Shown piece by piece: positions 33,776-53,416 of a stretch of DNA of 64,000 bases. A program made the translations under genes and the position numbers. Every line of letters begins with the position of its first letter. Position 1 is the first letter of the stretch. The DNA comes from Candidatus Latescibacterota bacterium (GTDB lineage: Bacteria > Latescibacterota > UBA2968 > GCA-2709665): the NCBI GenBank assembly GCA_965219995.1, contig CBDCOX010000002.1, positions 3,200,001-3,264,000 of the forward strand, given 5' to 3'. Under the pieces are notes generated by a model. That model worked only from the letters and a program-made list of their open reading frames with translations, was not told where the DNA came from and did not search any database.

Positions 33776-34162
33776 GTGGCTCGTTATCCCGCGCTGATCG
33801 ATGGCGAAACCGGCGCTTATGGTGTGACGTTTCCCGGTATTCCCGGCATCGTCGCCATGGGAAAAACCGTGGACGAGGCGCTGATGAACGCCGAAGAAGC
33901 GCTTCGCGACTATGTAGTCGAGGCCGAGAAGGACGGAGAGACGATACCGCCGCCAGGGGCTCTGGAACGGGTGGAGGTCCCGAACGGACAGGCGCTTGTG
34001 TCCGTCCCGCTGATTCGAATCTCCGGCCGGAACGTACGCGCCCACATGACGCTGGACGAAGGCGTCGCGGCGTTTATCGACGGTGAGGCGCGAAGACGCC
34101 GTATGACCCGCAAGGCCTATGTCGAATGGATGGTCCGACGTATCGCGGAGATGGGCGGATAG
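33776..34162 (+). CDS. hicB: HicB-family antitoxin
   Basis: RYPALID...YGVTFP.IPG..AMG.TVDEAL.NAEEAL; C-terminal RHH-like domain; AGGAGG RBS. Confidence 0.9.
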   Translation: MARYPALIDGETGAYGVTFPGIPGIVAMGKTVDEALMNAEEALRDYVVEAEKDGETIPPPGALERVEVPNGQALVSVPLIRISGRNVRAHMTLDEGVAAFIDGEARRRRMTRKAYVEWMVRRIAEMGG

Positions 34163-34193: not shown

Positions 34194-35723
34194 TTATTCG
34201 AAAACGACCAGTTCGCCGTTCCTTACGACCAGCACGACCGGATCGTAAACCGCGTCGCCGCTTTCGTCGAATGAAAACGAGCCCAGAACCGTTTCCAGGT
34301 CCCTCGTACCCGCCATCGCGTCTCGAATCGCGCCCGCGTCGGTTGACCAGGCCCCGGCGATTGCTTCCGTGAGAATGTACATGGCGGCGTACGACTGCGC
34401 GGCCCACGTGTCAGGTTCAGTACCGTATTTCGTTACGTAATTCTCCACAAAGGTCTCATTGCCCGGCGTGGAAGCCGCGCCCGACCAGCTGACAAATGAA
34501 ATCGCGCCCTCCGCAGCGTCACCCGCGGCCTCGACTTCAGCCCTCGACAGAGCGGGAACGAGAAAGGTTACGTTCGAAGCTATGCCGACCTCGCGCGCCT
34601 GAATCAAAATCTCCGATAGTTCGGTACCCAGGGCCGAGACGAAGACGGCATGCGGATTCAACGCCTTGATGCGCGTTAACTGTTCCGTAAAGGTGGTATC
34701 GCCGGTGTTGATGGTTTCTCGCGCCAGGATTTCGACGTCGATTTCGGCCAGTGTGTTTCTGATCGCCTCGTCGCTGCTGCGGGAGAAGAGGTCGACCTCG
34801 TCCACGATCATGGCGACTCTACGATACCTCAGCTTTTCCTGTGTCTCCCTGACCGAGCCGGGGACAAGCGCATTGACGTTCAGTCCGGCGCGGAAGATAT
34901 AGTCGCCTATCGCGCTCAGGCCGGCCGCGGTCGACGTGGAACTGAACGCAATGACCTCGTTCCGCTGGGCGATGGGAAACGCTTCCCTGGCGGCGGTGGA
35001 AATCACAGGACCGAGTATGGCGGACACACCGTCCTTGTCGATCAGTCTGTTGAACGCTTCAACGGCTCCGTCCGCGGTACCTCGTGAATCCACGACAATG
35101 AAGCGGATGCGCGCGCCGCCAAGTTTCGATGAACCGTTGATTTCGTTCTGCGCCAGCGCAAACCCGTCTCGCGCGGGAAATCCGTATCGCGTCTGCGGGC
35201 CTGTCAGAGGAAGAACGACACCGATCGCAATCTCCGCCGGAAGCCCGCCGGGCGCCAGCATGATCGAACCCGCCACGCGGGCTCTGTCGCCGACCGGCAG
35301 TTCGACCGTCGTTTCGTAGCCGCCGTTAACGGGAATACTGGACCAGGTTCCCAGCACACGACCGCCCCGTATCGCGCGCGCGCGGTAATAACCGGTCACC
35401 CGGTCATCTCCGATATTGATCCTCGCCCGGCCGCGGGCGTTGGTTGTGCCCGACCACATGTACTCCGCGGCCCTCCCCGAAACGGATCGTCCGAGTTCCA
35501 CGGTGACGCCGCTTACCGGCGTCTGATCCCGTGTTGCGCGGGCCACCACAACCGCCAATGCCCGGTCCCCACCCGAAGCCAGTTTGCCCAGCGGCCCCAC
35601 CGCCTGCCCGTCGGCCTCCGGCAATTGAGACGTCGTCAACCGATCGCCGGCGCAACCCCATGCTGCGCATATGGCCAGAGCCGGCAACAACACACTGCGG
35701 ATACGGAAAGATTGATTACGCAT
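34194..35723 (-). CDS. Lipoprotein: shared N-terminal module plus LivJ/K-type solute-binding domain (type A)
   Basis: Lipobox AWGC; IGVVLPLTG, ILGP..S, YIFR, AAQSYAA, LGSFSFDESGD. Confidence 0.9.
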   Translation of the reverse strand: MRNQSFRIRSVLLPALAICAAWGCAGDRLTTSQLPEADGQAVGPLGKLASGGDRALAVVVARATRDQTPVSGVTVELGRSVSGRAAEYMWSGTTNARGRARINIGDDRVTGYYRARAIRGGRVLGTWSSIPVNGGYETTVELPVGDRARVAGSIMLAPGGLPAEIAIGVVLPLTGPQTRYGFPARDGFALAQNEINGSSKLGGARIRFIVVDSRGTADGAVEAFNRLIDKDGVSAILGPVISTAAREAFPIAQRNEVIAFSSTSTAAGLSAIGDYIFRAGLNVNALVPGSVRETQEKLRYRRVAMIVDEVDLFSRSSDEAIRNTLAEIDVEILARETINTGDTTFTEQLTRIKALNPHAVFVSALGTELSEILIQAREVGIASNVTFLVPALSRAEVEAAGDAAEGAISFVSWSGAASTPGNETFVENYVTKYGTEPDTWAAQSYAAMYILTEAIAGAWSTDAGAIRDAMAGTRDLETVLGSFSFDESGDAVYDPVVLVVRNGELVVFE

Positions 35724-35758
35724 TGGATCCCCTTGTTCTTCGGAGTTCAGGACCTTTC

Positions 35759-35838
35759 CAGCCCGTTGAAAAAGCCCACCCGGACTGCGTCCGGCCCTTG
35801 CGGCCGAAACCCTGCGTTGCGACTTTGTCAACGGACTG
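35759..35838. mobile_element. 80-bp MITE-like element
   Basis: Imperfect terminal inverted repeats CAGCCCGTTGAAAAAGC / GACTTTGTCAACGGACTG. Confidence 0.5.
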
Positions 35839-37449
35839 TTACGGCTCGAACCGATAGACCACCGGCAATTGCGAAGGGTCGGTGACATTCGGATCCGTGT
35901 GGTGATAGATATTGATGCGCCCGGTTCCGCAATCTCCAAACTCATCGCTGGAGATCGTGCCGATGAGACCCTCGAATCCGGACGTGGCGAAGAGCTCCCG
36001 GCGCAGCGCGTTGCGGTCGACGATCAACGATTCGTCGTCCTGAATCGCCACGGACGCGATGGCGCTGAGCAGCAGCGTCGCGGCGTCGTAGGAGTGCGCC
36101 CAGTACGGCGTGCCCGGAAACCCGCCGTGCGCGGCTTCATAGGCGGTCAGGACGTCCTCAACGCTTTTTCCGGTTACCGCATTGACATTTGTGCCCAGGT
36201 CTGCCTCCGGCCCGGCAGCGTAAACGCCCTCGGACTGCGGGGTGGCCAGAAATTCCGAATCGAGAAGGGCCGCGCCCGTGATAAGCGTCACGCTTTCCAG
36301 GCCGTCGAATTCCTTCGCCTGCTTCGCAAATGGTATTCCTTCCTCGTCGAAGAGCGGGAAGAAGATTCCGTCCGGCCCTGCCTCGGCAAACTGCGTGAGG
36401 ACGGAGGTCATGTCCTCTTGCCCCTTGTCTATCCGGGCGCTGACCGGTACCTCGCCTCCCACGGCGGCGAACGCATCGCCGAACGCACTGACGAGGGCCG
36501 TTGTGTACGGGTCGCCGTCGTCCAGCGCTACCATGCGCCTCAGACCCAGTTCATTGTACGCGAAGTCAGCCACAGCCCGTGCCTGGTAGAGGTCGTTGAC
36601 CGCAACGCGAAAGTATCCGGGGTGGTAGTCGGAACTTGCGTTGCCCGCCAGATCGGACGTCAGCCTCGGCGACGTATTGGACGGCGAGATCATTACGAGC
36701 CCGGCTTCGCTGATCACCGGCGAGGCGGCCACGGCCGCCCCGGAGCAGGAGGTCCCGATAACCCCCAGCACCCGCGAATCCGCGACAATCTGTTCCGCCC
36801 CCGCGCGTCCGCCGTCGGGACCGCACATGCCGTCGATTGCCTCACCGAGTTCGACGCCGTGTCCATGGATCATTCCAAAATCGGCAACGGCCAGTTCAAC
36901 GGCATTTCGCGACGGATTGCCAAGCGACGCGGCGATGGTGTGCGTGAGCAGCGAACGAATGTGCACGGCCTCGCCTCCGCCAATCGTCACCAGGGTCCGG
37001 ACGTATGTACCCGTCACGCGTGCGTTTCCGCCAACGGGCAGATCGACCATGACTTCGTACCCCATGTTAACGGGTATGCTCGACCACGAACCGAGCAGGC
37101 TCCCGGCATCCATGGCGCGGACCTGATAGTAACCTCCGCCCGACGCGACTTCGACCCGCGCCAGGCCGTTCGCGTCGGTGGCGCCCGACGACTGGAAGCT
37201 GGCCGCCCGTCCTGAAATCGATCGCGCGATTTCCACCGTAACGCCGCCCAACGGCATTTGACCGTCCAGCACCCGGCCCACGACCAGGGCCGGAGTCACG
37301 TCCCCGCCGGAAGCCAGTTTGCCCAGCGGCTGACCGCCCGGTTCGCCGGACTCAGGTGCCTGCGACGTGGTCACGGGTTCCCCGCCGCAGCCCCAGGTTA
37401 CTGCTGCGACGAGTGTCAGCGCCAATAGACTGCGAGCCCGGTTAAACAT
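35839..37449 (-). CDS. Lipoprotein: shared N-terminal module plus branched-chain amino acid-type binding domain (type B)
   Basis: Lipobox TWGC; IGTSCSGA, ISPSNTSP.LT, YFRV, AHSYDAA, DEFGDCG; GGAGGG RBS. Confidence 0.9.
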   Translation of the reverse strand: MFNRARSLLALTLVAAVTWGCGGEPVTTSQAPESGEPGGQPLGKLASGGDVTPALVVGRVLDGQMPLGGVTVEIARSISGRAASFQSSGATDANGLARVEVASGGGYYQVRAMDAGSLLGSWSSIPVNMGYEVMVDLPVGGNARVTGTYVRTLVTIGGGEAVHIRSLLTHTIAASLGNPSRNAVELAVADFGMIHGHGVELGEAIDGMCGPDGGRAGAEQIVADSRVLGVIGTSCSGAAVAASPVISEAGLVMISPSNTSPRLTSDLAGNASSDYHPGYFRVAVNDLYQARAVADFAYNELGLRRMVALDDGDPYTTALVSAFGDAFAAVGGEVPVSARIDKGQEDMTSVLTQFAEAGPDGIFFPLFDEEGIPFAKQAKEFDGLESVTLITGAALLDSEFLATPQSEGVYAAGPEADLGTNVNAVTGKSVEDVLTAYEAAHGGFPGTPYWAHSYDAATLLLSAIASVAIQDDESLIVDRNALRRELFATSGFEGLIGTISSDEFGDCGTGRINIYHHTDPNVTDPSQLPVVYRFEP

Positions 37450-37987
37450 GCCAAGTCCCTCCATTCTGGCGATAATCTGCGAATTGGAAACGAAAAGAGT
37501 TCGGGCGTTTCGGAGACCTTTCAGAAACGAACATCAATGACCCGGTCACGCGGGCTTTTGCGCCAACCGGCAATTCAACCGTGGATTCGTACCCCGCGTT
37601 GATCGGGATGCTGGTCCAGGAGCCCAGTGAGATCCCTTCCTGCGTCGCCCTCACGCTATAATAACCGCTTACGCCGCTTCCTGCAATCTCCACGCGCGCG
37701 CGCCCGCGCGCGCCGGTCTTACCCGACCACGCATAGTCTGCCGCCCGCCCGGAGACGGATCGAGCGAAATGGACGGTGACGCCGCTCAGCGGCGCCTGAC
37801 CCTGCCGGACGCGAACGATGACCGAGGCCGGGGTCGTGTTGGCGTCTAAAGCGAGTTTTCCCGGCGCGCGGCGAACCCCGACCCCGCCTTCCGGAACCTG
37901 CGAGGTTGTCAAGCGTTCGCGGCCGCAGCCCAACACCAGGAATCCGGCCAACGCCAAAACGGACACACGGCGCAAGCTCTTGAGCAT
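37442..37987 (-). CDS. Lipoprotein made of the shared N-terminal module only (no cargo domain; possibly truncated)
   Basis: VLGCGRERLTTSQVPE..GKLA..RSVSGRAA..WSG.T..GYY..WTSIPINAGYE..VTGS then an unrelated 31-aa tail; AAGGAG RBS. Confidence 0.75.
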   Translation of the reverse strand: MLKSLRRVSVLALAGFLVLGCGRERLTTSQVPEGGVGVRRAPGKLALDANTTPASVIVRVRQGQAPLSGVTVHFARSVSGRAADYAWSGKTGARGRARVEIAGSGVSGYYSVRATQEGISLGSWTSIPINAGYESTVELPVGAKARVTGSLMFVSERSPKRPNSFRFQFADYRQNGGTWHV

Positions 37988-38050
37988 TTCAGCGCTCCTT
38001 ATCGCAGAACCTGAGAGTCCCGACTCCGGTTGTACCGTTGGGCACAGACC

Positions 38051-38088
38051 CCAAAATGACAGGCAGCGTACACTGCCTGTCATTTTGG
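38051..38088. other. Perfect 16-bp stem hairpin in the intergenic region
   Basis: CCAAAATGACAGGCAG-CGTACA-CTGCCTGTCATTTTGG. Confidence 0.75.
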
Positions 38089-38328
38089 CGAAACATTCAC
38101 CAGGTTAACCTTGATTCGTCATTTTCCGGTGACGTTACATCGTATATACGCAAGTCAACAACGGCGATTCGACGTCGGATTTTCTGGAACCTTCAGGTCA
38201 CTGGAGGTGAACGGAAAAAACGTCCGTTTCGACGACCTCTTCGGCCCAATTCGGAAGATCTTGCCGCGGTGCAGCGTTGCTTTTTTTTCTCGAATTCCGG
38301 AATCTACTCCCGAGCGCCGCGGAGCGCA

Positions 38329-39945
38329 TCACGGTCCGAACCGATAGACCACGGGCAACTGCGCCGGGTCTACGATGCTCGTGTCCGTGTGGTGATAGAT
38401 GTTCACGACACCGGTGCCGCAGTCTCCGAACTCGTCACAGGTGAGTTCCCCGATGAGACCGGGGAAGCCGGCTGTGGCCCCGATTTCCGCGCGCAGCGCA
38501 ACGCGGTCAATGTACAATTTCCCGCCATCGGTCACCGCAACGGCGTTGATGGCGCCCAGCAGCAGCGTCGCCGCGTCGTACGCGTGCGCCCAGAAGGGAT
38601 TGGTATGGGTCCCGCCGTAGATTGACTCGATCTCCGCAAGAACCGCACTTCCGCTCTTGCCGGTGGCGATATTGACGTTTTCGCCGTGAACCGGCTCCGG
38701 CCCGGCAAAATAGACGCCCTCGGACTGCGGCGTGCCGAGGAACTCCGAAAGGAGGAGGGCCGCGTCCGTGAGGAGCGTCGCGTCTTTCAGACCGTCGACC
38801 TCCCGAACCTGCACGGCGAATGGCGAGCCCTCTGCGATGAAGAGAGGAAAGAAGATGCCGTCGGGTTCGGCATCCGAAAATTCCGCAAGGACGGACGTCA
38901 TGTCCGTCTGTTCTTTCTCGATCCGGGCATTGACCGGGACCTCGCCGCCCAATTCACGGAACGCATTGCCGAACGCAGTGGTGAGACCCATGGTATACGG
39001 GTCGCCGTCGTCGATGGATACCATCCGCCGAAGGCCCAGTTCGTTGTATGCGAAGTCGGCGACGGCCTGCCCCTGGTACAGGTCGTTGTTGGCCGTGCGA
39101 AAATAGCCCGGGTGATAGTCCGGACTGGCGTTGCCGAAGAGGTCGGACGTGAGCGTCGGCGACGTGTTGGCCGGCGAGACCATCACCAGGCCCGCCGCAC
39201 TCAGCAGAGGTGAAGCCGCCACCGCGGATCCGGAACACAACGTGCCGATGATGCCGAGCGCCTGTGGATTGGCGATGACCTGCTGTGCGCTGGCGCGGCC
39301 GCCTTCGGCCGAACACATGCCGTCTATGGGATCGCCAAGCTCAACCTCGCGACCGTGGATCGGGCCGAAATCCCGAATGGCCAACTCGGCGCTGTATCGC
39401 GCCCAATCCGAAACCGAAGGCACGATGACGTGCGCAAGCACGGTACGGATTTGCACAGCCTCGCCCTCGCCATACGGTACCACGTCCCGAACGCTTGAAC
39501 CCGTCACGAGCGCCCCGCCGTCAACGGACAGTTCGACCTGCGTTTCATATCCTTCGTTAACCGGAATGCTCGACCACGAACCCAGAACGTTGTCGTCCTG
39601 CGTCGCCCGCGCCTGGTAGTATCCCCCCACCCGGGCGCCGCCGATAACAACCCTTGCCCGGCCGCGGGCATCGGTTGTGCCCGACCACTCAAAGTTCGCG
39701 GAACGGCCCGATACCGAACGCGAGAACGCCACGGTGACGCCTTCGACGGCCGTCTCGCCATCTTGCACGCGGGCCAGAACCGCGGCCTGCTCGACGTCTC
39801 CGCCGGGAGCCAGCTTTCCGAGCGCCTGCCCCGGCTGATCCTCTGCCTCAGGCATCTGTGACGTCGTCACGCGCTCACCACCGCAGCCCCACGCCAGAAC
39901 TGCGACAAGCGCCGGCAAAAACAAACTGCCGTTTCGTGAGAACAT
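38329..39945 (-). CDS. Lipoprotein: shared N-terminal module plus binding domain (type B)
   Basis: Paralog of 35839-37449 (DGMCS, GTLCSG, DYHPGYFR, QLPVVYRF); GGAGG RBS. Confidence 0.9.
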   Translation of the reverse strand: MFSRNGSLFLPALVAVLAWGCGGERVTTSQMPEAEDQPGQALGKLAPGGDVEQAAVLARVQDGETAVEGVTVAFSRSVSGRSANFEWSGTTDARGRARVVIGGARVGGYYQARATQDDNVLGSWSSIPVNEGYETQVELSVDGGALVTGSSVRDVVPYGEGEAVQIRTVLAHVIVPSVSDWARYSAELAIRDFGPIHGREVELGDPIDGMCSAEGGRASAQQVIANPQALGIIGTLCSGSAVAASPLLSAAGLVMVSPANTSPTLTSDLFGNASPDYHPGYFRTANNDLYQGQAVADFAYNELGLRRMVSIDDGDPYTMGLTTAFGNAFRELGGEVPVNARIEKEQTDMTSVLAEFSDAEPDGIFFPLFIAEGSPFAVQVREVDGLKDATLLTDAALLLSEFLGTPQSEGVYFAGPEPVHGENVNIATGKSGSAVLAEIESIYGGTHTNPFWAHAYDAATLLLGAINAVAVTDGGKLYIDRVALRAEIGATAGFPGLIGELTCDEFGDCGTGVVNIYHHTDTSIVDPAQLPVVYRFGP

Positions 39946-40045
39946 AACGAGTCACCTCCAATTTTTCAGACGTCGAAAAACGGAATCCATACCCGAAAGC
40001 GGCGACTATGGACGCCGGAACCTGCCGGCGATTTTAACGTAAAAC

Positions 40046-40077
40046 AGCCTCCGGACACATTGGCATCCGGAGGCTGG
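40046..40077 (-). terminator. Probable intrinsic terminator after the first lipoprotein gene
   Basis: CAGCCTCCGGA...TCCGGAGGCTG followed by TTTT on the minus strand. Confidence 0.65.
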
Positions 40078-40091
40078 AGACGTGTACTTGA

Positions 40092-41609
40092 TTACTCGAA
40101 CGGCTCGAATGCGCCGTCCCGGACGATCAGCACGATGGGATCGTAGACCGCGTCGCCGTCGTCGTTGAACGAGAAGGTGCCCAGAATCGTGTCGACGTCC
40201 CGGGTAGCAGCCATTGCATCCTTTATTGCGCTCGCGTTCGTCGATCCGGCGTTTGCGATCGCATCCGCGAGTATGTTCAGCGAGGCGTACGAAAGCGCGG
40301 CCCACGGACCCGGTTCACTGTCGTGTTCCGCCATATAACTATCAATGAAGGTCTGATTCCCAGGCGTGGAAGCATTGGTTGCCCAACTCGTAATGCTGAT
40401 CACGCGTTCCGCGGCCTCTCCGGCGGCGGCGACTTCAGTCAACGTCATTTCCGGGATAATGATGGGAATATTCGAGGGTATGCCAACTTCACGGGCCTGG
40501 ACCATAATTTGAATCATTTCCGCTGCCAGACACGAAACGAAGAGTGCGTGCGGATTCAGATCTTTGATATTGTTCAACTGGTCCGCGAACGATGTATCTC
40601 CCGTCGCAAAGGTCTCCCGGCCCAGAATCTCAACCTCGCCTTCCACAAGGGAATTGCTTACGGCCTCGTCCAGGCTCCGGGAATAGACGTCGGCGTCGTC
40701 AACCATTGTGGCTACCCTGCTGAACCTCAGTTTCTCCTGCAATTCCTTGACGGCGCCGGGAACCAGCGTACCCACGTTGAGGCCGGAGCGGAAAATATAA
40801 TCGCCGATCGCGCTCAGGCCAACAGCGGTTGAGGTCGAACTGAATGCCAGGACTTCGTTCCGTTGGGCGATCGGGAACACTTCCTTTCCGACGGTGGAAA
40901 TGCCGGGGCCCAGGATGACGTTCACGCCGTCTTCGTTGATGAGTTTGTTGAACGCCGCGGTGGCAGCGTCGACCGTACCTTCCGTATCCTCGACGATAAA
41001 TTCGATACTTGCGCCGCCGAGCCTCGCAGAGTTGTTGATTTCTCCTTGAGCCAACTCAAAGCCTTCCAGCGCCGGCACGCCGTACACGTCCTGAGGACCC
41101 GTAAGCGGCACGGCGACACCAATGGCGATCTTTGCGGGCAGACCGCCTGGCGTCAGCGCGATCGAACCGGTCGCGCTCGCCTTGTCGCCGATTGGCAGTT
41201 CAACTGTCGACTGATACCCGCTGTTGATCGGTATGCTCAACCACGAACCGATCTCGCTTCCGCCACTCATGGCCCGCGCCGCATAGTAGCCCGTTACACC
41301 GGCGCCGCCGATATCCACGTACGCCTTGCCCCGCACGTTGGTCGTTCCGGACCATTTGAAATCGGCCGCCCGACCGGAAACCGAACGCGAGAACTCGACG
41401 GTAGCGCCGCTGACCGGCATGCCGCCGTCCTGCACGTTCGCTACGACCACGGCCCGCATCATTCCGTTCAGGGCCAGCTTGCCCAGGGGTTGGCCGGCGC
41501 CGTCCCCTGCCTCCGGTATCTGCGACGTTGTAAGGCGCTCGCCGCCACAACCCCATATCAGACCTGCGGAAAGCGCAAACAGCAACACACTGCGAACACT
41601 CCGAAACAT
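40092..41609 (-). CDS. Lipoprotein: shared N-terminal module plus binding domain (type A)
   Basis: Paralog of 34194-35723 (PGGLPA.IAIG, FPIAQRNEV, GDAVYDP); lipobox IWGC. Confidence 0.9.
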   Translation of the reverse strand: MFRSVRSVLLFALSAGLIWGCGGERLTTSQIPEAGDGAGQPLGKLALNGMMRAVVVANVQDGGMPVSGATVEFSRSVSGRAADFKWSGTTNVRGKAYVDIGGAGVTGYYAARAMSGGSEIGSWLSIPINSGYQSTVELPIGDKASATGSIALTPGGLPAKIAIGVAVPLTGPQDVYGVPALEGFELAQGEINNSARLGGASIEFIVEDTEGTVDAATAAFNKLINEDGVNVILGPGISTVGKEVFPIAQRNEVLAFSSTSTAVGLSAIGDYIFRSGLNVGTLVPGAVKELQEKLRFSRVATMVDDADVYSRSLDEAVSNSLVEGEVEILGRETFATGDTSFADQLNNIKDLNPHALFVSCLAAEMIQIMVQAREVGIPSNIPIIIPEMTLTEVAAAGEAAERVISITSWATNASTPGNQTFIDSYMAEHDSEPGPWAALSYASLNILADAIANAGSTNASAIKDAMAATRDVDTILGTFSFNDDGDAVYDPIVLIVRDGAFEPFE

Positions 41610-41952: not shown

Positions 41953-43575
41953 TCAGATGCCGAGGATCCCTCGCGCTGCCTGGCGCGCGTCTTCCAGCGT
42001 TTCGACAACGCGGTGCCTGGGTAGATGTCTCAGGATGCCGAGCGCGTTCAGGGTTCGCGGAACCAGGCCGGACAGACCCATTACAATGCATTCGGTCTGC
42101 TCGCCTTTGGCGATATCCATGAGTTGCCCGATGACCATGGCTGCGCTGTCGTCGAGATAGTTGGCCCCTGAAAAGTCGAAGATGACCACATCGTGGTCTT
42201 TGATGTCCGCGCCAATGACGCCGGCCAGCTTGTGGGAGGATGCGACGGTGAGACTTCCTCTGAGCGCGACCAGACCGACCCGCGCAGAGTACGGACTCAG
42301 CGCGTCGGCGTCCATGTCTTCCTCCTCGGCGAAGAACGCCCGGTCCAGCAGCGGCACGGAGACCACGCTGTCCAGCTCCAGTCGTTCCAGTTGCCGGGCG
42401 TGCACCATTCCGGCGGCGATCAGACCGATTGCCACGGCCGTTACCAGATCGACAAATACCGTGAGTCCAAGCGTAATCATCATGACGATGAGATGCTCCC
42501 GCCGCAGCCGGTGAACGCGGGTAAGAAGACGCCAGTCGACGACATCCCATCCGACCTTTATCAGAATGCCGGCGAGAACCGCATGGGGAATCGGCTCCAC
42601 GTACCGCCCGAGACCCAGCATCAGAAACAGCAGGAGTAACGCGTACAACGCACCGGAGACCGGCGTCACCCCGCCGGCGCGTATATTGGTTACTGTCCCG
42701 GTGGTGGAACCCGCGCCGGGCAGCCCGCCAAACAATCCCGATACCATGTTGCCGATCCCCTGCCCAACGAGTTCCCGGCTCGCGTGGTGCCTCGTGCCGG
42801 TCAGTGAATCGGCAACCAGTGAGGTGAGGAGGCTGTCCACCGAACCGAGAAGCGCGAGGATGAGCGCAGGTTCCAACGCCATCATCAAGAAGGAGACCGT
42901 GGGCAGCGTCAGTTGCAGATCGGGCAATCCCGTGGGTATCCGGCCGATAACCGGTACGTCTTTCAGCCAGAAGACGCCGAGCAGCGTCCCGGCAAGCAGC
43001 GCCAGGAGCGGGCCGGGCAGATATCTTGCGAAGCGTCGCGGCCAAAGCACTCCGACGGCGAGCGCGACCGTGGCGATGGCCAGCGCGTTATAATTGACAT
43101 TGTCCACCGCATCCAACACAGCGCGAATCGTGCCCACGACGCCGCCCGGCGCCGCGGGGGATCCCAGAAACGGCAGGATGTGAATCACCATGATGATGAT
43201 TCCGATCCCCGACATGAACCCGGAGATGACCACGTGCGGCGTATAGGCGACGAATCGGCCGATCCTCGACAAGCCGAGTAGCACCTGCAGCAGACCGGCC
43301 ATGACGACCACTGTCAGGGCTTCTGAAAGGTTGGACGTGTAGCCCGAAACTATGACCACCAGGGCAACCGTCATCGGCGCAGTGGGGCCCGAAATCTGGG
43401 TCCGGGTACCGCCGAATACCGCCGCGAAAAAACCCACCGCGATCGCGCCGTACATCCCCGCCGCCGCGCCCATTCCCGACGCGACGCCCAGGGCCAACGC
43501 CACGGGCAGCGCCACCACGGTTGCCGTGATGCCGCCGAAAATGTCGCCCCGCAGCGCACTCAAGTCATATTTCAT
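41953..43575 (-). CDS. sulP: SulP/SLC26 anion transporter with STAS domain (BicA-like)
   Basis: GDIFGGITA.VVALP.ALA.G, GG...QISGPT, ELVGQGIGN, STAS VIFDFSG..YLD. Confidence 0.95.
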   Translation of the reverse strand: MKYDLSALRGDIFGGITATVVALPVALALGVASGMGAAAGMYGAIAVGFFAAVFGGTRTQISGPTAPMTVALVVIVSGYTSNLSEALTVVVMAGLLQVLLGLSRIGRFVAYTPHVVISGFMSGIGIIIMVIHILPFLGSPAAPGGVVGTIRAVLDAVDNVNYNALAIATVALAVGVLWPRRFARYLPGPLLALLAGTLLGVFWLKDVPVIGRIPTGLPDLQLTLPTVSFLMMALEPALILALLGSVDSLLTSLVADSLTGTRHHASRELVGQGIGNMVSGLFGGLPGAGSTTGTVTNIRAGGVTPVSGALYALLLLFLMLGLGRYVEPIPHAVLAGILIKVGWDVVDWRLLTRVHRLRREHLIVMMITLGLTVFVDLVTAVAIGLIAAGMVHARQLERLELDSVVSVPLLDRAFFAEEEDMDADALSPYSARVGLVALRGSLTVASSHKLAGVIGADIKDHDVVIFDFSGANYLDDSAAMVIGQLMDIAKGEQTECIVMGLSGLVPRTLNALGILRHLPRHRVVETLEDARQAARGILGI

Positions 43576-44176: not shown

Positions 44177-44833
44177 ATGCTGAGATTCCCCGAAGAACTC
44201 ATGCTCCTGATACTCGACGACGAGAACGGGAGGTTCGCCCGTGTTCCGGACCAGTCCCTGCGTTATGCGCTCGCCGGCGGGGTGCTGATGGACCTGGCGA
44301 TGGAGAACCGCATTGACACCGATCCGAAGCAGCTTGTTCTTGTGGATTCGACTCCCGTAAACGACAGCCTCCTCGATCCGACGCTCGCCGACATCTCGCA
44401 GGCTGAAGAAACACACGACGCGCGCTATTGGGTGGAACGCACCGCCATCAGCAGCGCCGCGGGCATTCGAGAGACGTCTCTGGACCGGCTGGTTGAAAAA
44501 GGAATCCTGGAACGCCGTGACGACCGGTTTCTGTGGGTCTTCCGGTCACGGCGGTATCCCGTCGTGGACGACCAGGCCGAGCGGGAAGTCAAGCTCAGAA
44601 TTATGGAGATCCTGTTCAGCGACCAGATTCCCGACCCTCGCGACGTGGTGATCATCAGCCTTGCGCACGCCTGCAACCTCTTCAGCCAGATATTGTCCGC
44701 CAGGGAACTGGCGCGCGTGGCCCCCCGGATCAACCAGGTGCGGAAGCTCGATCTGATCGGCCAGGCGACGTTCCGGGCGATCACGGAAATTGAACTGTCG
44801 CTCGCTATGGCCGTACAGATGCGTCCGTATTAG
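44177..44833 (+). CDS. GOLPH3/Vps74 (GPP34) family protein
   Basis: EELMLLILDD..G, LAGGVLMDLA...RI, LV.KGIL.R...FLWVF..RRYP. Confidence 0.85.
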   Translation: MLRFPEELMLLILDDENGRFARVPDQSLRYALAGGVLMDLAMENRIDTDPKQLVLVDSTPVNDSLLDPTLADISQAEETHDARYWVERTAISSAAGIRETSLDRLVEKGILERRDDRFLWVFRSRRYPVVDDQAEREVKLRIMEILFSDQIPDPRDVVIISLAHACNLFSQILSARELARVAPRINQVRKLDLIGQATFRAITEIELSLAMAVQMRPY

Positions 44834-46655: not shown

Positions 46656-47429
46656 TTACATTCGCCAGACCACGAGCATCTGCGCGATCATTTCGTCCTG
46701 GTCCGCTCCGAGCTTGTTCCGCCAATACTGGAACTCCACGCCGACCATGAACTGGTTGGTTTCGCCGGCCATCGCCTTGCCCACGTCCCACACCAGCTGC
46801 GGCTGCGCCAGAATCGAGCCGTTGACGTCGTCTCCGAATTCGTTGGAACGACCACCGATGTATTCGGCATGCCCCGTGAACGTGAACGATTGCTCGCCCG
46901 CCTCGATGGGCAGCAGCCAGCTGACGTCGAACATGAAGCTGTTGCCGGTCTTCGGAGCGCCGCCGCCGTCCACGCCGGTGTTGTCGTCAATATAGGCCGT
47001 CAGATCCGTATTCAGGAAGACAAATCCCGGCACGTTCCAGGAAGCCCTCACGCCCGGCAGGTATTTCAATACCTTGGCGTCGCCCCCCGCGTTGACGCCG
47101 GCAACCAGGGCGACGTCCCGAATGGGTCCCAGACGCACGTCCTTTCTCGCCAGCTTGCCGAAGCTCAGTGTCGGATACCATTCGGAATAGAAATCTCTGT
47201 CGTTGAAACCGTCGCTGCCGCTGTCGTCAATATAGTCCAGAAAGAAGAAACTGTCGCCCAGCTTCCATCTCGAGGCGTTCTGCACGGTAAACACCAGCGT
47301 CCAGTGGCTGGACCCCGAGAATGGATTCAATTGAGAGCCGTATTGAAGGTGGAACTCCGTCTGCGCGATCGCCGCGGTCGGAAACGCTTGCAGCACAGCC
47401 CACGCAATACCGGCGTATACCGTTTTCAT
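46656..47429 (-). CDS. Tsx-like nucleoside-specific outer-membrane channel
   Basis: Signal peptide; W..GD.FFFLD, YSEWYP.LS, QPQL.WD, GVEFQYWRNKLG. Confidence 0.82.
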   Translation of the reverse strand: MKTVYAGIAWAVLQAFPTAAIAQTEFHLQYGSQLNPFSGSSHWTLVFTVQNASRWKLGDSFFFLDYIDDSGSDGFNDRDFYSEWYPTLSFGKLARKDVRLGPIRDVALVAGVNAGGDAKVLKYLPGVRASWNVPGFVFLNTDLTAYIDDNTGVDGGGAPKTGNSFMFDVSWLLPIEAGEQSFTFTGHAEYIGGRSNEFGDDVNGSILAQPQLVWDVGKAMAGETNQFMVGVEFQYWRNKLGADQDEMIAQMLVVWRM

Positions 47430-47557
47430 TGCCCTATCCTGTTACGTTATATTGGATGCGCATTTCGAGAGTCTCGCCGACCGGCGTACCAGGCGTCGAC
47501 AATCGAATCGTTTTCCACAAACGAGGCAAAATGTACAAACTCACACAGGAGATCCTT

Positions 47558-48313
47558 ATGCGTATCGTCTGCACCTCGATGACTTGCTGTACGGAATCAG
47601 ACAATCCACGGTCTCATCCGGACAAGGTTGCCTGGGGATACGACGCCGGCAACGGACCCGACGTCTGGGGCCGGCTGAGCCCGGACTTTGCGCTTTGCGC
47701 CGACGGGACGTGCCAGTCTCCCGTCGACCTCCGGGATCCCATTGCGGAACGGCTCCCGCCAATCATCTTCAACTACCGGCCGACAGCGCTGGAAATCGGG
47801 AATACCGGACGCACCGTCCTCGCGACGCCTTCCGTGGAAAACTGGATCGTCATTGCCGGCGAAAAATACAGCCTGCTGCAGTTCCATTACCACGCGCCGT
47901 CCGAACACACGGTGGACGGGAAACCGTTCGACGTGGAGATGCACCTCGTTCACCGGAACGAAGAAGGCGCGCTGGCGGTTATCGGTGTGCTGATCGAGAA
48001 GGGAAAACCGCTCACCGCGTTCGATCGGATTCGAGCGCATCTGCCGCACGCGCCGGGCGAGAATAAACGCATTGACGGCGCCCCTGTCAACATCGGCGAT
48101 CTGCTGCCTCGAAGCAAGCGCTCCTACCGGTATGAAGGTTCCCTGACGACTCCGCCCTGCTCCGAGGGCGTCAGGTGGATTGTGATGGCAACGCCCATCC
48201 AACTCTCAGAGACGCAGATTGGCGCGTTCGAAGACATCGTTCACAAGAATAACCGGCCGGTACAGTCGCTGAACGGCCGCGAGATTTTCGTGGATATCGG
48301 AGACGGGAGTTAA
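47558..48313 (+). CDS. cah: Alpha-class carbonic anhydrase
   Basis: WGY..GP..WG, QSPVD, QFHYH.PSEH, EMHLVH, YEGSLTTPPCSEGV.W, NNRPVQ.LNGR; GGAG RBS. Confidence 0.95.
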   Translation: MRIVCTSMTCCTESDNPRSHPDKVAWGYDAGNGPDVWGRLSPDFALCADGTCQSPVDLRDPIAERLPPIIFNYRPTALEIGNTGRTVLATPSVENWIVIAGEKYSLLQFHYHAPSEHTVDGKPFDVEMHLVHRNEEGALAVIGVLIEKGKPLTAFDRIRAHLPHAPGENKRIDGAPVNIGDLLPRSKRSYRYEGSLTTPPCSEGVRWIVMATPIQLSETQIGAFEDIVHKNNRPVQSLNGREIFVDIGDGS

Positions 48314-48464: not shown

Positions 48465-49769
48465 TCAGGATTTACCGGCCGCGAGGATCCCGTATCGCTG
48501 TAACGTACTCGCCAGCGTGGGACGACCCAGCCGAATCCTGCCGTCGTTCAGCAGGTATGTGAACAGATATCCGACGCCGAGCATGAGGATCCCGATCAAA
48601 AAGCAATACATGACCGCTCGATCCGGATATACATCCTTGAGATATCCGACGTACAGGGGACCTGAGATGCCGGCGGCCGCCCAGGCCGTCAGGACGGCGC
48701 CGTAGATGGTGGACATCTTCTTCGTGCCGAACACGTCGAGGACGAAAGGGGGCATGGTCGCGAATCCGCCGCCGAAGCAGAGCAGGACGTAGCAGACCAG
48801 AGCCGAAAATATCCAGGGGTTGGTTTCCGTCATGAGGATGCCGAAGACGACCATCTGGCTGGCGAGGAGTACCCTGAAGACGGTAACACGGCCGAACCGG
48901 TCGGATAACAGACCCCAGAACAGTCGCCCCAATCCGTTGCAGATGGAACTGACGGCAATAAGCGTCGCGCCGTACTCAGCCAGTGTACTCGGTTCGATCG
49001 AACTGTCCGCCAGGCCCCAGATCTCCTGGAGGATTTCCGACTGGAAGCTGATGACCGAGATTCCTGCGGCGATGTTGAAGAAGAAGACGATCCACATGAT
49101 CACGAACTGGGTTGTCTTGAGGTACGATACAGCAGAATCCGGTTCCCCGTAATCCAGCGCGTCATCCGGTGCGCCGCCCGCGGGTACCGCTGACGCAGGC
49201 GGATCGCTGAGGGCCAGGCTGCAGGGAAGCAGTATGGCGCCGAATATGATCCCGAGCCAGATAAAAACAAGTGGAAGCGTGCCCGCTGTTGTTACGATCA
49301 AGAACGGCGCCAACCCCTTGCTCAAGAGGAAGGCGCCAACGCCGAAGCCCATAACGACGATACCCGTGGCCAGGCCCTTGCGGTCGGGGAACCACTTCGC
49401 TACGGTCGCGACCGGCGTGACGTATCCCAGCCCGATTCCCGCGCCGCCGATCACGCCGTAACCCAGGTAGAAAAGCGGTATGGAATCCATGTGAAGCGCG
49501 GCTCCGGAAATCAGGTATCCGCCTGAAAACAGGATGCTGCCGGTGACCGCCAGAAACCTTGGGCCCAATCGAGAGAGCATGTTGCCCGCCCAGGCCGCCG
49601 AGACGCCCAGCGTAAAAATCGCGATACTGAAGGCCCATGCCGTCTCCGTATGCGTCCAGCCGCCCTGATGCACCAGGATCGTCTGGAAGAAACTCCAGGC
49701 GTAGACCGTGCCGAAGCATACCTGCAGAACCGTGCAGAACAGCGCAATAGCGCCTCTTGGAATGCGCAA
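48465..49769 (-). CDS. OFA-family MFS transporter (oxalate/formate antiporter-like)
   Basis: GTVYAWS, GLGYVTPV....KWFPDRKGLATG, NGLGRLFWG.LSD. Confidence 0.92.
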   Translation of the reverse strand: MRIPRGAIALFCTVLQVCFGTVYAWSFFQTILVHQGGWTHTETAWAFSIAIFTLGVSAAWAGNMLSRLGPRFLAVTGSILFSGGYLISGAALHMDSIPLFYLGYGVIGGAGIGLGYVTPVATVAKWFPDRKGLATGIVVMGFGVGAFLLSKGLAPFLIVTTAGTLPLVFIWLGIIFGAILLPCSLALSDPPASAVPAGGAPDDALDYGEPDSAVSYLKTTQFVIMWIVFFFNIAAGISVISFQSEILQEIWGLADSSIEPSTLAEYGATLIAVSSICNGLGRLFWGLLSDRFGRVTVFRVLLASQMVVFGILMTETNPWIFSALVCYVLLCFGGGFATMPPFVLDVFGTKKMSTIYGAVLTAWAAAGISGPLYVGYLKDVYPDRAVMYCFLIGILMLGVGYLFTYLLNDGRIRLGRPTLASTLQRYGILAAGKS

Positions 49770-49783
49770 CCCCGATCCTCCGC

Positions 49784-50527
49784 TTAATCTCGCCGTTCTC
49801 CCGCCTCCCCCGACCCCTCCGTATCTGGCGAGTTCCCCGATACGTACCGAAACAGGCGCGCGAGGTCGCCGACCTCATCATCGCGGCCAAGCAACTCGTC
49901 GACCTCTGACTTCTCACGACTTCGATCCTCGGCAAGGTCCACCGCGTAGGAAAGAAGCCCTCCCAGCGGCTTTGCGGCCAGGTTGACCAGCCAGATCGAC
50001 GCCAGGACGCCAACAACAAGAAAAATACTGATGAGAATGACCTGCTGGCCGATGGCGCGCTGTATTTTGAGTGCGACAATGTCCAGGTCCATTCCAACGT
50101 GAACCGTGCCGGCAACGCCGGCCAGAATCGGGCTTCCCACCTCCAGGAAGTCGCCCAGACCGGGAATGCTTCGCTCAACCGGTTCGGTGTTGGACGGATC
50201 GCTTGCGAGAATCTCCTCGGGGATGCCGGGAACGAAGGTATGCGCCAGATACTCGCCCTCTTCGCTGGTAATATAGATGTAGCGGATGCCCTGAATCTCG
50301 ACGAACTGATCGATCATCGACTGCAGCGTTGCAAGATTCCGGTTCAGGAGGATGTCCACACTGGCGTTGGCGATGGTCTTCGCGATATCTTTGCTGTTGG
50401 ACGCGTATTCCGCCGACAATTGCGTGTCTACCGTGTAAATGCACAGGAAAGACGTCGACAGTACGATCAGCCCGAAGAGCGCGAAGATGCCGAATCTGGT
50501 CTTCTGAAACAGCTTTTGAATTTTCAT
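49784..50527 (-). CDS. Two-TM membrane protein with periplasmic sensor and HAMP domain, no output domain
   Basis: TM1, Cache-like YIYI....G..LAHTF, TM2, KPL..L....DL...DDEVGDLARLF, then a short tail. Confidence 0.8.
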   Translation of the reverse strand: MKIQKLFQKTRFGIFALFGLIVLSTSFLCIYTVDTQLSAEYASNSKDIAKTIANASVDILLNRNLATLQSMIDQFVEIQGIRYIYITSEEGEYLAHTFVPGIPEEILASDPSNTEPVERSIPGLGDFLEVGSPILAGVAGTVHVGMDLDIVALKIQRAIGQQVILISIFLVVGVLASIWLVNLAAKPLGGLLSYAVDLAEDRSREKSEVDELLGRDDEVGDLARLFRYVSGNSPDTEGSGEAGERRD

Positions 50528-50528
50528 A

Positions 50529-51896
50529 TTACGAAAGCCAGCTTTCCCAGTCGTCCAGAGTCACAAAGCGGCCGTCCTGAACGACGGTGTAGTAAACGGT
50601 TTGCAGACCCTGTCGCCGGTCGGGTCCGAAAGAAACCCGCTCCCCGATGCCGAGATCGAAATCCCGAACCGAGAAGACCGCGTCCTCCAGCCCCTCCCTG
50701 CTGGGAATGTCTCCCAGGCGCCGGAGAATCTCGGTCATCAGCTTCGCGTCCAGAAAGCCTTCCAGGCTGACAAAGCTCTGCTCGAACGGGCTGTAGGGCT
50801 CTTTGACCAGTTCCTTCGGAACGTCCGGATTGTAGCGCGCCATCAACTCGCGGTACTCTCTCACGGCAGGAATGGAAGTGTCCTCATAGCTGGGCACGAC
50901 CTGGGAATTGACGAGATACCGGGTGTACGTCTCGGCGTCGTCACGGCCCTCGCTGAGCAGATGCAGCAGATTCTCGCTGCCTACGAACGAAAGATTGGCG
51001 ATCGGGACCTTCAGGCCCAGGTCGATCGCGTCGCGGGCGAAAGCGGCGCACGCGGCGTATGATCCGATGCAGATGACGGCGTCCGGTGAAGCGCCTTGCA
51101 GGATTTCAACCTGGCGCCTCATGCTTCCGGTGAACCTTTGACCGCGGCGGTAGGTCGCCTCGCCGGCAATGTGTTTGCCGTGCGCCTCGATTGCCGCCCG
51201 CACGCCCGCCCATCCGCTGCGTCCGTACGCGTCGGCCTGGTAGAACACCGCGATCCGCTTTCTGCCGGTCCGGACGAAATTGTCCACAAGCCCCGCGGTC
51301 TCCTGGCGATAGGACGCCCGGAGGTTGAACGCGAAATCCCCGTATGGCGGCTCCCTCTGAGGCTGGGCGCCGGTAAACGGGAAAAACAGATAGACCCGCT
51401 CGTCCTGGAACTTCTTCAGCAGGGGAAGCGCGCGGGTCACGGTTGGCGTGCCGACGTACCCGAATAACAGGAACACCTGGTCTTCCAGCATGAGCTTCAT
51501 GGTGTTCTTCACGCATGGGTCCGGCTGGTACCCGTCGTCATAGAGCTTGAAGACGATCTGGCGGCCGCCAACCCCGCCGTTGTCATTTACGTGATTGAAG
51601 TACGATTTGGCGCCCCGGTAGAGTTCGCTGCCCAGCCCCCGCGAGGGCCCGGAAAACGCCGCGGACATGCCCAGGACGATCTTGCCGTCATATACGCCTT
51701 CAGAGCCTTCGCCGCGATCGGGGTTTTCTGTTGAAACTCCCGCTGATCCTCCTGTTTGGGCTCCTACGTCCCTCCAACCTCCCCAGGACAACGCCAGCAG
51801 CCCGAAAAGGCCTCGACGGAGGAGCGACCTTCGCGTGAGATCAAACGCGTGATTGTTCCTGGCGTCGTGTCCGTCGGTCCAATTGGGAAAATCCAT
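50529..51896 (-). CDS. Periplasmic type-1 solute-binding protein with a probable Tat signal
   Basis: TRRSLLRRG; LGMSAAFSGP, DDGYQP, GYVGTPT, FNLRASYRQE. Confidence 0.88.
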   Translation of the reverse strand: MDFPNWTDGHDARNNHAFDLTRRSLLRRGLFGLLALSWGGWRDVGAQTGGSAGVSTENPDRGEGSEGVYDGKIVLGMSAAFSGPSRGLGSELYRGAKSYFNHVNDNGGVGGRQIVFKLYDDGYQPDPCVKNTMKLMLEDQVFLLFGYVGTPTVTRALPLLKKFQDERVYLFFPFTGAQPQREPPYGDFAFNLRASYRQETAGLVDNFVRTGRKRIAVFYQADAYGRSGWAGVRAAIEAHGKHIAGEATYRRGQRFTGSMRRQVEILQGASPDAVICIGSYAACAAFARDAIDLGLKVPIANLSFVGSENLLHLLSEGRDDAETYTRYLVNSQVVPSYEDTSIPAVREYRELMARYNPDVPKELVKEPYSPFEQSFVSLEGFLDAKLMTEILRRLGDIPSREGLEDAVFSVRDFDLGIGERVSFGPDRRQGLQTVYYTVVQDGRFVTLDDWESWLS

Positions 51897-51978
51897 TCGG
51901 TTCCTCTTCAGCTGAAATACGGATTTGCCTGCATCACCGGGGGCTTCCGCGCCAATTCGATCGCAGGCCGGCCGATCC

Positions 51979-53094: not shown

Positions 53095-53182
53095 AAATCC
53101 GCTCCTTTGCAGAAGAGTACCCAGGTCCGACAGAACGTTGGCGGCGAAAGCTCGCGATTCCAGCATCGGGCGCCGGCGGGAT

Positions 53183-53416
53183 CTATTCTTCAGCCGTTTC
53201 TTCCGCACCGTCGCCGTTTTGTGCGCGGATGCGTTCCACGTATGACCGGCCCCTGTTTACGGCTTTGTCCACTTTGCGTCGAACGGTCTGACGCGTTTCG
53301 ATACCGCTTCGAGGAGCCAGCATTACACCGGCGATGATTCCAAATGCCATTCCGATAATGGCGCCCAGGCCGAATATGCCCAGGCATAGACTCACGTTGT
53401 TCGTCTCGCGATCCAC
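53183..53416 (-). CDS. YtxH-domain small membrane protein
   Basis: GAIIG...G...G.MLAP.SG.ETR motif; GTG start with GGGAGG. Confidence 0.75.
   Translation of the reverse strand: MDRETNNVSLCLGIFGLGAIIGMAFGIIAGVMLAPRSGIETRQTVRRKVDKAVNRGRSYVERIRAQNGDGAEETAEE

Follow-up and report, generated by a model that had tools for sequence, protein, structure and literature searches.

A lipoprotein cassette shared by five tandem genes and many unrelated proteins in Latescibacterota: a probable anchor, tether and stalk

Why would five neighbouring genes share one N-terminal block and then differ from the same residue onward? The question is raised by a 64,000-nucleotide stretch of a Candidatus Latescibacterota bacterium genome (assembly GCA_965219995.1, contig CBDCOX010000002.1, positions 3,200,001 to 3,264,000 of the forward strand; below, the window). 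The listing of its open reading frames (ORFs) gives five consecutive ORFs at 34194-41609, all on the minus strand, which make up an array of putative lipoproteins. A preliminary description had proposed that an unrecognised, portable module is fused here at a fixed boundary to swappable ligand-binding domains, as part of a lineage-specific system, and that a known Pfam domain confined to these binding proteins, with module and cargo trees that agree, would speak for plain gene duplication instead. We found that the shared block is a cassette of lipoprotein signal, tether and beta-sandwich, carried by many unrelated proteins in one class of Latescibacterota, and that it is probably a standardised lipid anchor, tether and stalk. 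Below, the module is the cassette from the lipobox cysteine onward and the cargo is what follows it, here a binding domain of type A or type B. The genes in transcription order are as follows.

40092-41609, minus strand: G1, 505 aa, cassette plus type-A Peripla_BP_6 cargo; Cys codon 41547-41549, module reaching down to 41154; signal peptide and lipobox aa 1-21, tether aa 22-50, beta-sandwich about aa 51-152, cargo aa 153-505.
38329-39945, minus strand: G2, 538 aa, cassette plus type-B Peripla_BP_6 cargo; Cys codon 39883-39885, module down to 39487.
37442-37987, minus strand: G3, 181 aa from its ATG, cassette only; Cys codon 37925-37927, module down to 37529.
35839-37464, minus strand: G4, 541 aa, cassette plus type-B Peripla_BP_6 cargo; Cys codon 37387-37389, module down to 36997.
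34194-35723, minus strand: G5, 509 aa from its MRNQSF start (the listed ORF extends further upstream, to 35945), cassette plus type-A cargo; Cys codon 35652-35654, module down to 35256.

The shared start that had been described, (W/L)GC followed by (L/V)TTSQxPE, GKLA and a beta-rich block, was present in all five genes. Each has an arginine or lysine among its first 12 residues, a hydrophobic segment some 12 residues long and a lipobox of the form (L/I/A/T)(W/L)GC; read in this way from their sequences, the five proteins qualify as putative lipoproteins (Lgt/LspA substrates). When the modules were aligned from the Cys onward, 44 of 133 columns were invariant and mean column identity was 73%, and similarity across all five ended after TG(S/T), at the boundary first reported. 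The tether, about 28 residues after the Cys, carries the motifs CGGER, TTSQxPE and PLGKLA and is predicted to be disordered; the residues right after the Cys are GGERL, GGERV, GRERL, GGEPV and AGDRL in the five genes. The beta domain that follows (about 100 residues) has a signature of its own, RS(V/I)SGRA, GYY and W.SIP(V/I)N. A profile built from the five modules scored E 1e-63 to 1e-68 on each copy and found 15 more ORFs in the same genome, so the shared module is not a chance resemblance.

Peripla_BP_6 exceeded the Pfam threshold in all four cargos, with E values of 5.6e-56 (G1, where the match spans aa 161-488), 7.2e-29 (G2), 1.8e-36 (G4) and 9.5e-56 (G5). The cargos of G1 and G5 (type A) are 63% identical and those of G2 and G4 (type B) 65%, against 25-28% between types, and G3 has none, which confirms the order A-B-none-B-A. 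After its module G3 has only about 28 further, unrelated residues, and it overlaps the start of G4 by 23 bases. Among solved structures, those nearest to the cargos are binding proteins for branched-chain and other amino acids (E 1e-28 for type A, 3e-17 for type B). A Pfam scan found no C-terminal type IX secretion system (T9SS) sorting domain (Por_Secre_tail/FlgD_ig) in the five proteins. Among the 18 flanking ORFs (25150-56418) there was no ATP-binding cassette (ABC) permease, ATPase or chemoreceptor, as had been noted.

We then asked what kind of domain the module contains. No NCBIfam model matched it, and its Pfam matches stayed below threshold: on the window proteins Big_1 (PF02369) scored 13.5-19.8 bits (cut-off 34.9), CarboxypepD_reg (PF13620) 17.2 bits (cut-off 32.3) and bMG3 20 bits within the first 150 residues, and scores of the Big_1/CarboxypepD_reg type reached 18-21 bits in paralogues of the same genome. 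An AlphaFold2 model of the G1 module, made from a 66-sequence alignment, had a mean predicted local distance difference test score (pLDDT) of 83.6; the first 30 residues after the Cys were disordered and residues 31-131 formed an eight-strand beta-sandwich with pLDDT above 90. The predicted fold is transthyretin-like, one of the two outcomes that the preliminary description had named for such a model, the other being an immunoglobulin (Ig) fold. Foldseek returned transthyretin and its relatives as the top matches in the PDB, weakly (TM 0.36-0.5, root-mean-square deviation about 6 Å). The Foldseek matches being weak, we relied for the fold on VIA-align, which searched 48,161 chains. It gave a Bacteroides fragilis fragment (3e8v, Z 10.4; 81 aa, 2.6 Å), the transthyretin-related YedX (Z 9.8), the S-layer stalk protein SlaB (Z 9.5), the transthyretin-like domain of carboxypeptidase D (Z 9.2; 77 aa, 2.5 Å) and, at Z 7.5-8.6, pilin CnaB domains, DUF3823 lipoproteins and the SusC NTE domain; Z values of 8-10 lie only modestly above background for so common a fold, and the list mixes unrelated functions.

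Two further comparisons point to the same relatives. The ESM-Atlas clusters nearest to the module were all CarboxypepD_reg (score 0.91), and some matches of the five-module profile were giant proteins with 7-18 repeats, of which the three examined (P0023, P0039, P0102) proved to be Big_1/Invasin_D3/CarboxypepD_reg repeat proteins. Because the sub-threshold Pfam scores, VIA-align, the language-model clusters and the repeat giants agree, the beta domain is not a new fold; it is a divergent, unmodelled branch of the CarboxypepD_reg/Big_1 superfamily. The module was therefore rightly called unrecognised as far as models at Pfam threshold and NCBIfam go, but it has a known fold and distant, sub-threshold relatives.

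A transthyretin-like domain could also mean that the beta domain forms dimers or tetramers, or binds carbohydrate or peptidoglycan, and so clusters the cargos or fixes them to the wall. Transthyretin and its relatives lead the Foldseek list, YedX, PucM and HIU hydrolase reach Z 8-10 in VIA-align, CBM41, pilin CnaB and carbohydrate-binding proteins share the fold, and some relatives string several cargos on one cassette. The Foldseek matches are nevertheless poor, the fold is very common and the functions on the VIA-align list are mixed, and we think such a role quite improbable.

The full-length AlphaFold2 model of G1 had a predicted template modelling score (pTM) of 0.86, with pLDDT below 50 over aa 1-48, eight strands over aa 52-152 and about 7 residues between the last module strand and the first cargo strand. 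From this model we deduce the order lipid, flexible tether, rigid sandwich, closely joined cargo. In the reading we favour, the Sec/lipoprotein signal and lipobox Cys would provide a lipid that fixes the protein to the membrane, the tether of about 28 residues would give it reach, and the beta-sandwich would act as a membrane-proximal stalk that holds the functional domain off the bilayer.

If the cassette is such a device, is it tied to binding proteins? In the genome to which the window belongs (5.44 Mb, 2 contigs, 98.6% complete), the five-module profile found the beta domain in 20 ORFs, 11 of which have the whole N-terminal cassette: the five array genes, two more Peripla_BP_6 proteins and one each with an OpuAC, Sod_Cu (Cu/Zn superoxide dismutase), NigD_C-like or unknown domain. 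Searched against 1.84 billion representative proteins, the profile gave 397 matches at E <= 1e-3, 221 at E <= 1e-10 and 26 at E <= 1e-30. We scanned 104 of the 150 best representatives with Pfam, the 46 omitted being mostly short fragments and giant repeat proteins. Their N-terminal cassettes were joined to Peripla_BP_6, SBP_bac_3, OpuAC, Sod_Cu, sCache_2, Cytochrome_P460, CCP_MauG, SnoaL (many), GDSL lipase, Exo_endo_phos, LRR, SGL, PrcB_C, Inhibitor_I42 (chagasin-type), Spond_N, and PHB-depolymerase-type and other esterase domains; related loci add SBP_bac_8 and cytochrome c. Across relatives the cargos amount to about 19 unrelated families, four kinds of binding protein among them. The module is thus portable, as had been predicted, and is far from confined to the binding proteins of the array. 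Within Latescibacterota, a single class has attached it to a wide range of unrelated proteins whose work lies outside the cytoplasm.

In some relatives two cargos follow one cassette in series, as double Peripla_BP_6, Peripla_BP_6 plus SBP_bac_3 or Peripla_BP_6 plus Sod_Cu (proteins P0009, P0011 and P0021; loci L050, L070 and L076). In the window's own genome, a type-A binding protein (C2:4829833-4830969, 379 aa) has a signal of the same kind and an SWGC lipobox fused directly to where the cargo begins (AADGLPEKIEIGVALPL). Judged by its sequence it is a cassette-less counterpart with the same boundary and neither tether nor beta domain.

The earlier claim of a lineage-specific system was borne out. 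When 185,579 species genomes were scanned with a pattern, 170 stretches were confirmed, and 51 loci were kept from these. The module occurred in 84 of 168 Latescibacterota genomes (E <= 1e-8), all within one class. By family it was found in 21/21 (f1), 29/31 (f2), 3/3 (f3) and 30/76 genomes (f4), and in 0/36 genomes of ten other families.

The beta domain was found to have a second position. In 9 of the 20 ORFs only the beta core is present (profile positions about 33-128), near the C-terminus, and eight of these nine copies continue into a T9SS sorting domain (FlgD_ig/Por_Secre_tail, PNPFN motif). The ninth, in a Cache-like protein (C2:4252077-4253702, L034), has an unrelated Arg/Pro-rich tail instead, probably the result of a frameshift. 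Among the 104 scanned representatives, 30 have a T9SS sorting domain, and in about 25 of these the beta domain ends within some 25 residues of it (coordinates read by eye); the exceptions are P0113, P0116, P0132, P0136 and P0143. Cache, LRR and esterase cargos occur with the lipid anchor and with the T9SS anchor alike, and the genome encodes the T9SS translocon protein SprA and a LolA homologue. Since the domain stands beside the N-terminal lipid anchor in one set of proteins and before the sorting domain in the other, it sits next to whichever end does the anchoring. The class thus also uses this beta domain as the last one before T9SS sorting domains.

These findings bear on a different explanation, in which the cassette is a sorting or export device: a lineage-specific machinery would recognise tether and beta domain and flip the lipoprotein to the surface, the system would be one of true surface display, and the binding proteins would capture nutrients outside the outer membrane. 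Despite the predicted disorder the tether motifs are conserved, and of 299 lipobox candidates of the genome 9 had, right behind the Cys, a G(G/R)(E/D)R-like sequence; seven of these 9 are cassette proteins. The lipobox scan was crude, missing 4 of the 11 N-terminal cassette ORFs, and this is a rough indication of specificity; because seven of nine carriers are cassette proteins, the motif seems to travel with the cassette and not to be general to the organism's lipoproteins. An export device also fits the finding of this beta domain, and of Cache, LRR and esterase cargos, on proteins that T9SS sorts and exports to the surface, as well as the presence of SprA and LolA, and a lipoprotein export signal (LES) directly after the Cys is described for Bacteroidota (PMC5080379). 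On the other side, the tether motif is unlike C-X-K-(D/E)2 or SDDDD, with a single acidic residue at +4 and then Arg; cytochrome c, di-haem peroxidase and SodC cargos better suit the periplasm; and no candidate flippase was identified. About 20 TonB-receptor matches were found in the genome, none of them beside the array, the nearest about 41 kb away and outside the window. We judge an export device to be unlikely, if worth serious attention.

A bolder version sees in the cassette both address label and stalk for a route of surface display specific to Latescibacterota, with the tether as a new lipoprotein surface-export signal and the binding proteins as permease-free nutrient traps that serve outer-membrane transporters. 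We regard this as rather improbable. If it were true, the displayed amino-acid-, glycine-betaine- and sugar-type binding proteins would act in a BtuG-like ligand handover; the Bacteroides surface lipoprotein BtuG is reported to hand vitamin B12 to the TonB-dependent transporter BtuB. It would also be a new use of binding proteins in a two-membrane bacterium, possibly an adaptation to life inside sponges.

How did the array come to hold such a mixture? We found it behind the same NCS2, GPP34 and SulP genes in 10 related loci. Its composition varies, from A-B-(A fragment)-B-A in L036 to A-A-B-A in L037, A-A-A-B in L038 and A-B-A-A-B-A in L054 and L057, and several relatives' genomes contain split or truncated members. 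Across the genus, positional orthologues of the array genes carry the same type of cargo. When 106 distinct modules were placed in a tree, every window gene fell in its own well-supported group of such orthologues, the G2 module inside a group of six B-type modules (starred in the module tree). With support 100, the module of G3 clusters with those of full-length A-type genes that occupy its array position in relatives, and for this reason we take G3 to be an A-type gene that lost its cargo, a truncated remnant as far as its sequence tells; the same position is split or truncated in other genomes too. We considered whether G3 is a decaying pseudogene. The terminal branch of its module is long (0.22 vs 0.012-0.046 for the other four), but the ratio of non-synonymous to synonymous substitution (dN/dS) is 0.28-0.35, no higher than in intact paralogues and not clearly relaxed, and decay of the remaining module was not shown.

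Modules and cargos have not shared one history. Within the window, modules are 53-60% identical regardless of cargo. In the genome behind L051, L055 and L058, A, B and OpuAC genes have modules 76-94% identical to one another, between-type cargos being 23-27% identical; a B cargo there is 83% identical to that of G2, with a module only 59% identical to the G2 module. A tree that forces together the 22 B-type modules, a group named after a first, free tree had been seen, was 58 log-likelihood units worse (approximately unbiased (AU) test, p = 0.017). The B-type modules thus form no single clade, and the agreement of module and cargo trees expected of plain duplication was not observed. Such a mismatch would result if modules were exchanged, or underwent gene conversion, at a fixed boundary, and the identities suggest that modules are homogenised within genomes. 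The cassette has probably been exchanged or homogenised between paralogues independently of the cargo, the five genes forming a birth-and-death tandem array of cassettes with HAAT-type binding domains of types A and B.

We next considered what the binding domains could serve. A Pfam search of the genome found no BPD_transp_2 (PF02653, LivH/LivM-type) permease, and tblastn with three permeases of this family from relatives gave a best E of 0.12. Nor was BPD_transp_2 found in 14 other genomes of the genus, several of them single-contig, or in either of two genomes of a second genus; it is present in 34 of 53 genomes of the order, with 2-6 matches in most sister-family genomes. Peripla_BP_6 (PF13458) ORFs number 14 in the window's genome, one of them LpoA/LppC-like with an N-terminal helical region, and 6-15 in each of the genus's 15 genomes. 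For the cargos of G1, G2, G4 and G5, dN/dS values of 0.09-0.22 were obtained in 12 of 13 comparisons, the outlier of 0.42 coming from a pair of very low divergence, and these values indicate purifying selection; for the modules the range was 0.11-0.48. Because the genus lacks a LivHM-type permease, the array proteins cannot feed a canonical ABC importer of this kind. Most likely they would be tethered ligand-capture or retention proteins, or ligand sensors. A chemoreceptor partner was considered and rejected, the genome having no MCP signalling domain (MCPsignal).

The absence of the permease also bears on the most conventional explanation, that the array encodes ordinary binding proteins of ABC importers, anchored to the membrane as in Gram-positive bacteria, with the beta domain as a spacer and the array a product of plain whole-gene duplication. 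The cargos do belong to the HAAT family and their nearest structures are amino-acid binding proteins, the window genes have same-cargo positional orthologues across the genus, and ABC import exists in the genome, with 22 matches to BPD_transp_1 permeases. Against this, BPD_transp_2 is found in 0 of 15 genomes of the genus, the cassette carries non-transport cargos too, and module and cargo histories differ. Moreover, the module was not found in 12 permease neighbourhoods of relatives, where four binding-protein ORFs (three of about 440 aa and one fragment) lack it. With the permease missing, this explanation is the weakest of those considered, and we hold it to be very unlikely indeed.

Several points weigh against the anchor, tether and stalk that we favour. 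A shared fold does not show a shared function, and the stalk role of the beta domain is one that we infer from models. The conserved CGGER, TTSQxPE and PLGKLA motifs hint at recognition by a machinery or partner, because a mere spacer would not need them. "Display" may be the wrong word, since the cargos include many proteins typical of the periplasm (cytochrome c, di-haem peroxidase, SodC, binding proteins); cytochrome c, peroxidase and SodC point to the periplasm, the T9SS link and the shared cargo families point outward, and the cassette proteins may face either the periplasm or the cell surface. A pTM as high as that of the full-length model suggests packing of the beta domain on the binding domain, which it may modulate rather than only hold away. 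The incongruence of modules and cargos draws on that AU group chosen with hindsight and on module trees of only 132 columns, and the permease absence on Pfam and tblastn searches of a 98.6%-complete genome.

The array is flanked by a HicB-like antitoxin and a pyridoxal phosphate decarboxylase on one side and by SulP/STAS, GPP34 and NCS2 permease genes on the other (Pfam). The following features of the surroundings were recorded.

41953-43575, minus strand: SulP/STAS transporter (Pfam), directly upstream of the array.
44177-44833, plus strand: bacterial homologue of GPP34 (Golgi phosphoprotein 3; E 9e-49), between the NCS2 permease and SulP genes, 92-97% conserved in the 10 related loci.
47321-48313, plus strand: eukaryotic-type (alpha) carbonic anhydrase, a few genes from SulP; it would fit a bicarbonate-related unit.
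33776-34162, plus strand: HicB-like antitoxin, immediately downstream of G5; the arrays of several relatives also have it as a neighbour.
50529-52205, minus strand: sixth Peripla_BP_6 protein of the window, whose signal contains RR and whose N-terminal extension, about 175 aa long, is a different one; its neighbours (region 48465-53208, minus strand) are an outer-membrane beta-barrel ORF, a single-Cache protein and a major facilitator superfamily transporter, and together they may be a separate binding-protein unit.

By tblastn, SulP adjoins the array in the 10 related loci, with the order NCS2 permease, GPP34, SulP, array kept. Since these genomes are close kin, the synteny is weak evidence of a functional link; with the carbonic anhydrase a few genes away, SulP was not accepted as an array partner and is probably only syntenic context.

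Public sequence runs gave two further observations. Three metagenome or metatranscriptome runs showed several-fold higher summed contig depth at the intergenic stretches 35759-35800 and 38132-38408, upstream of G5 and G3, with many contigs of 41-43 bases; 35759-35800 coincides in part with a GC-rich hairpin that a T run follows, and may be a repeated terminator-like element. One coral metatranscriptome run contained contigs 93-97% identical to parts of G5 and G2, two of which span module-cargo junctions. These contigs come from a relative and may reflect DNA carry-over; they hint weakly at expression and were not counted as evidence of array expression, and the uncovered parts of the array are uninformative.

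What annotation pipelines have missed here is an unnamed, lineage-restricted domain family and a reusable cassette, the N-terminal 150 residues having no Pfam or NCBIfam model. In a phylum known from metagenomes alone, the cassette accounts for how dozens of proteins in each genome are built, and nature offers in it a clean case of exchange at the level of domains, with a fixed boundary and concerted evolution of the module. It also poses a puzzle, in that a genus keeps 6-15 LivJ-like binding proteins per genome without the permease family they should serve; the role of such orphan, tethered proteins bears on how two-membrane symbionts capture or sense small molecules. The cassette could, in addition, serve as a membrane-tethering tool.

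Finally, we compared the cassette with known systems. No description of it was found in Pfam, NCBIfam or the literature on Latescibacteria lipoproteins and on Ig-like spacers of surface lipoproteins (subscription journals lay outside the scope). Its closest parallels in layout are Bacteroidota surface lipoproteins such as SGBP-B, SusE/SusF and BoGH5. PMC4850273 describes SGBP-B, whose Ig-like domains come after a lipidated Cys and short linker and are proposed to hold the binding site out from the membrane, and BoGH5, in which an all-beta N-terminal module of 100 aa and a linker follow the lipidated Cys. The parallel extends to the lipidated Cys, the flexible linker, one or more rigid beta-sandwiches, the distal functional domain and the proposed role of projecting the working domain from the membrane. 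The cassette differs in belonging to another sequence family, transthyretin/CarboxypepD_reg-like, and in its conserved tether motifs. Unlike the Sus-like lipoproteins, moreover, the array has no SusC/SusD or polysaccharide utilisation locus context, the cassette's surface exposure is only inferred, and its cargos are mostly small-molecule binding proteins, redox proteins and SnoaL, not glycan binders or glycosidases.

At the other end of the protein, the parallel is with the immunoglobulin superfamily (IgSF) domains of the gingipains RgpB and Kgp and of PPAD, which are small beta-sandwiches directly before the sorting or anchoring domain; PMC4804311 gives the domain before the T9SS C-terminal domain of RgpB as a proposed "spacer or insulator". 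The cassette's beta domain is of another family and is also used at the opposite end, beside an N-terminal lipid anchor. The tether recalls the Bacteroidota LES, given in PMC5080379 as K-(D/E)2, Q-A-(D/E)2 or SDDDD at +2 to +6, in being a short conserved motif directly after the lipidated Cys in a subset of lipoproteins. It differs in reading G-G-(E/D)-R and then TTSQxPE, without the two acidic residues after K or a polar residue at +2 to +5 by which an LES is recognised.

With CarboxypepD_reg and Big_1 the beta domain shares a sub-threshold match over most of its length, the predicted fold and the language-model clusters; what sets it apart are scores of 13-21 bits against cut-offs of 32.3 and 34.9, its own signature and the fixed association with lipobox and tether. 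The type-A and type-B cargos are clear Peripla_BP_6 domains like those of the HAAT-family proteins LivJ and LivK (PDB 4nqr, 4gnr, 3td9, 1z15), but the array proteins would be lipid-anchored via the cassette and stand in tandem, away from livHMGF, in a genus without LivH/LivM-type permeases. Both the fold and the broader notion of a beta-sandwich that serves as spacer beside a membrane anchor are already known. What is new is the sequence family with its fixed lipobox-tether-sandwich unit, the breadth of its cargos, its use at both protein ends and its concerted evolution, together with its restriction to one Latescibacterota class and the genus-wide keeping of tethered LivJ-like proteins without their permease family.

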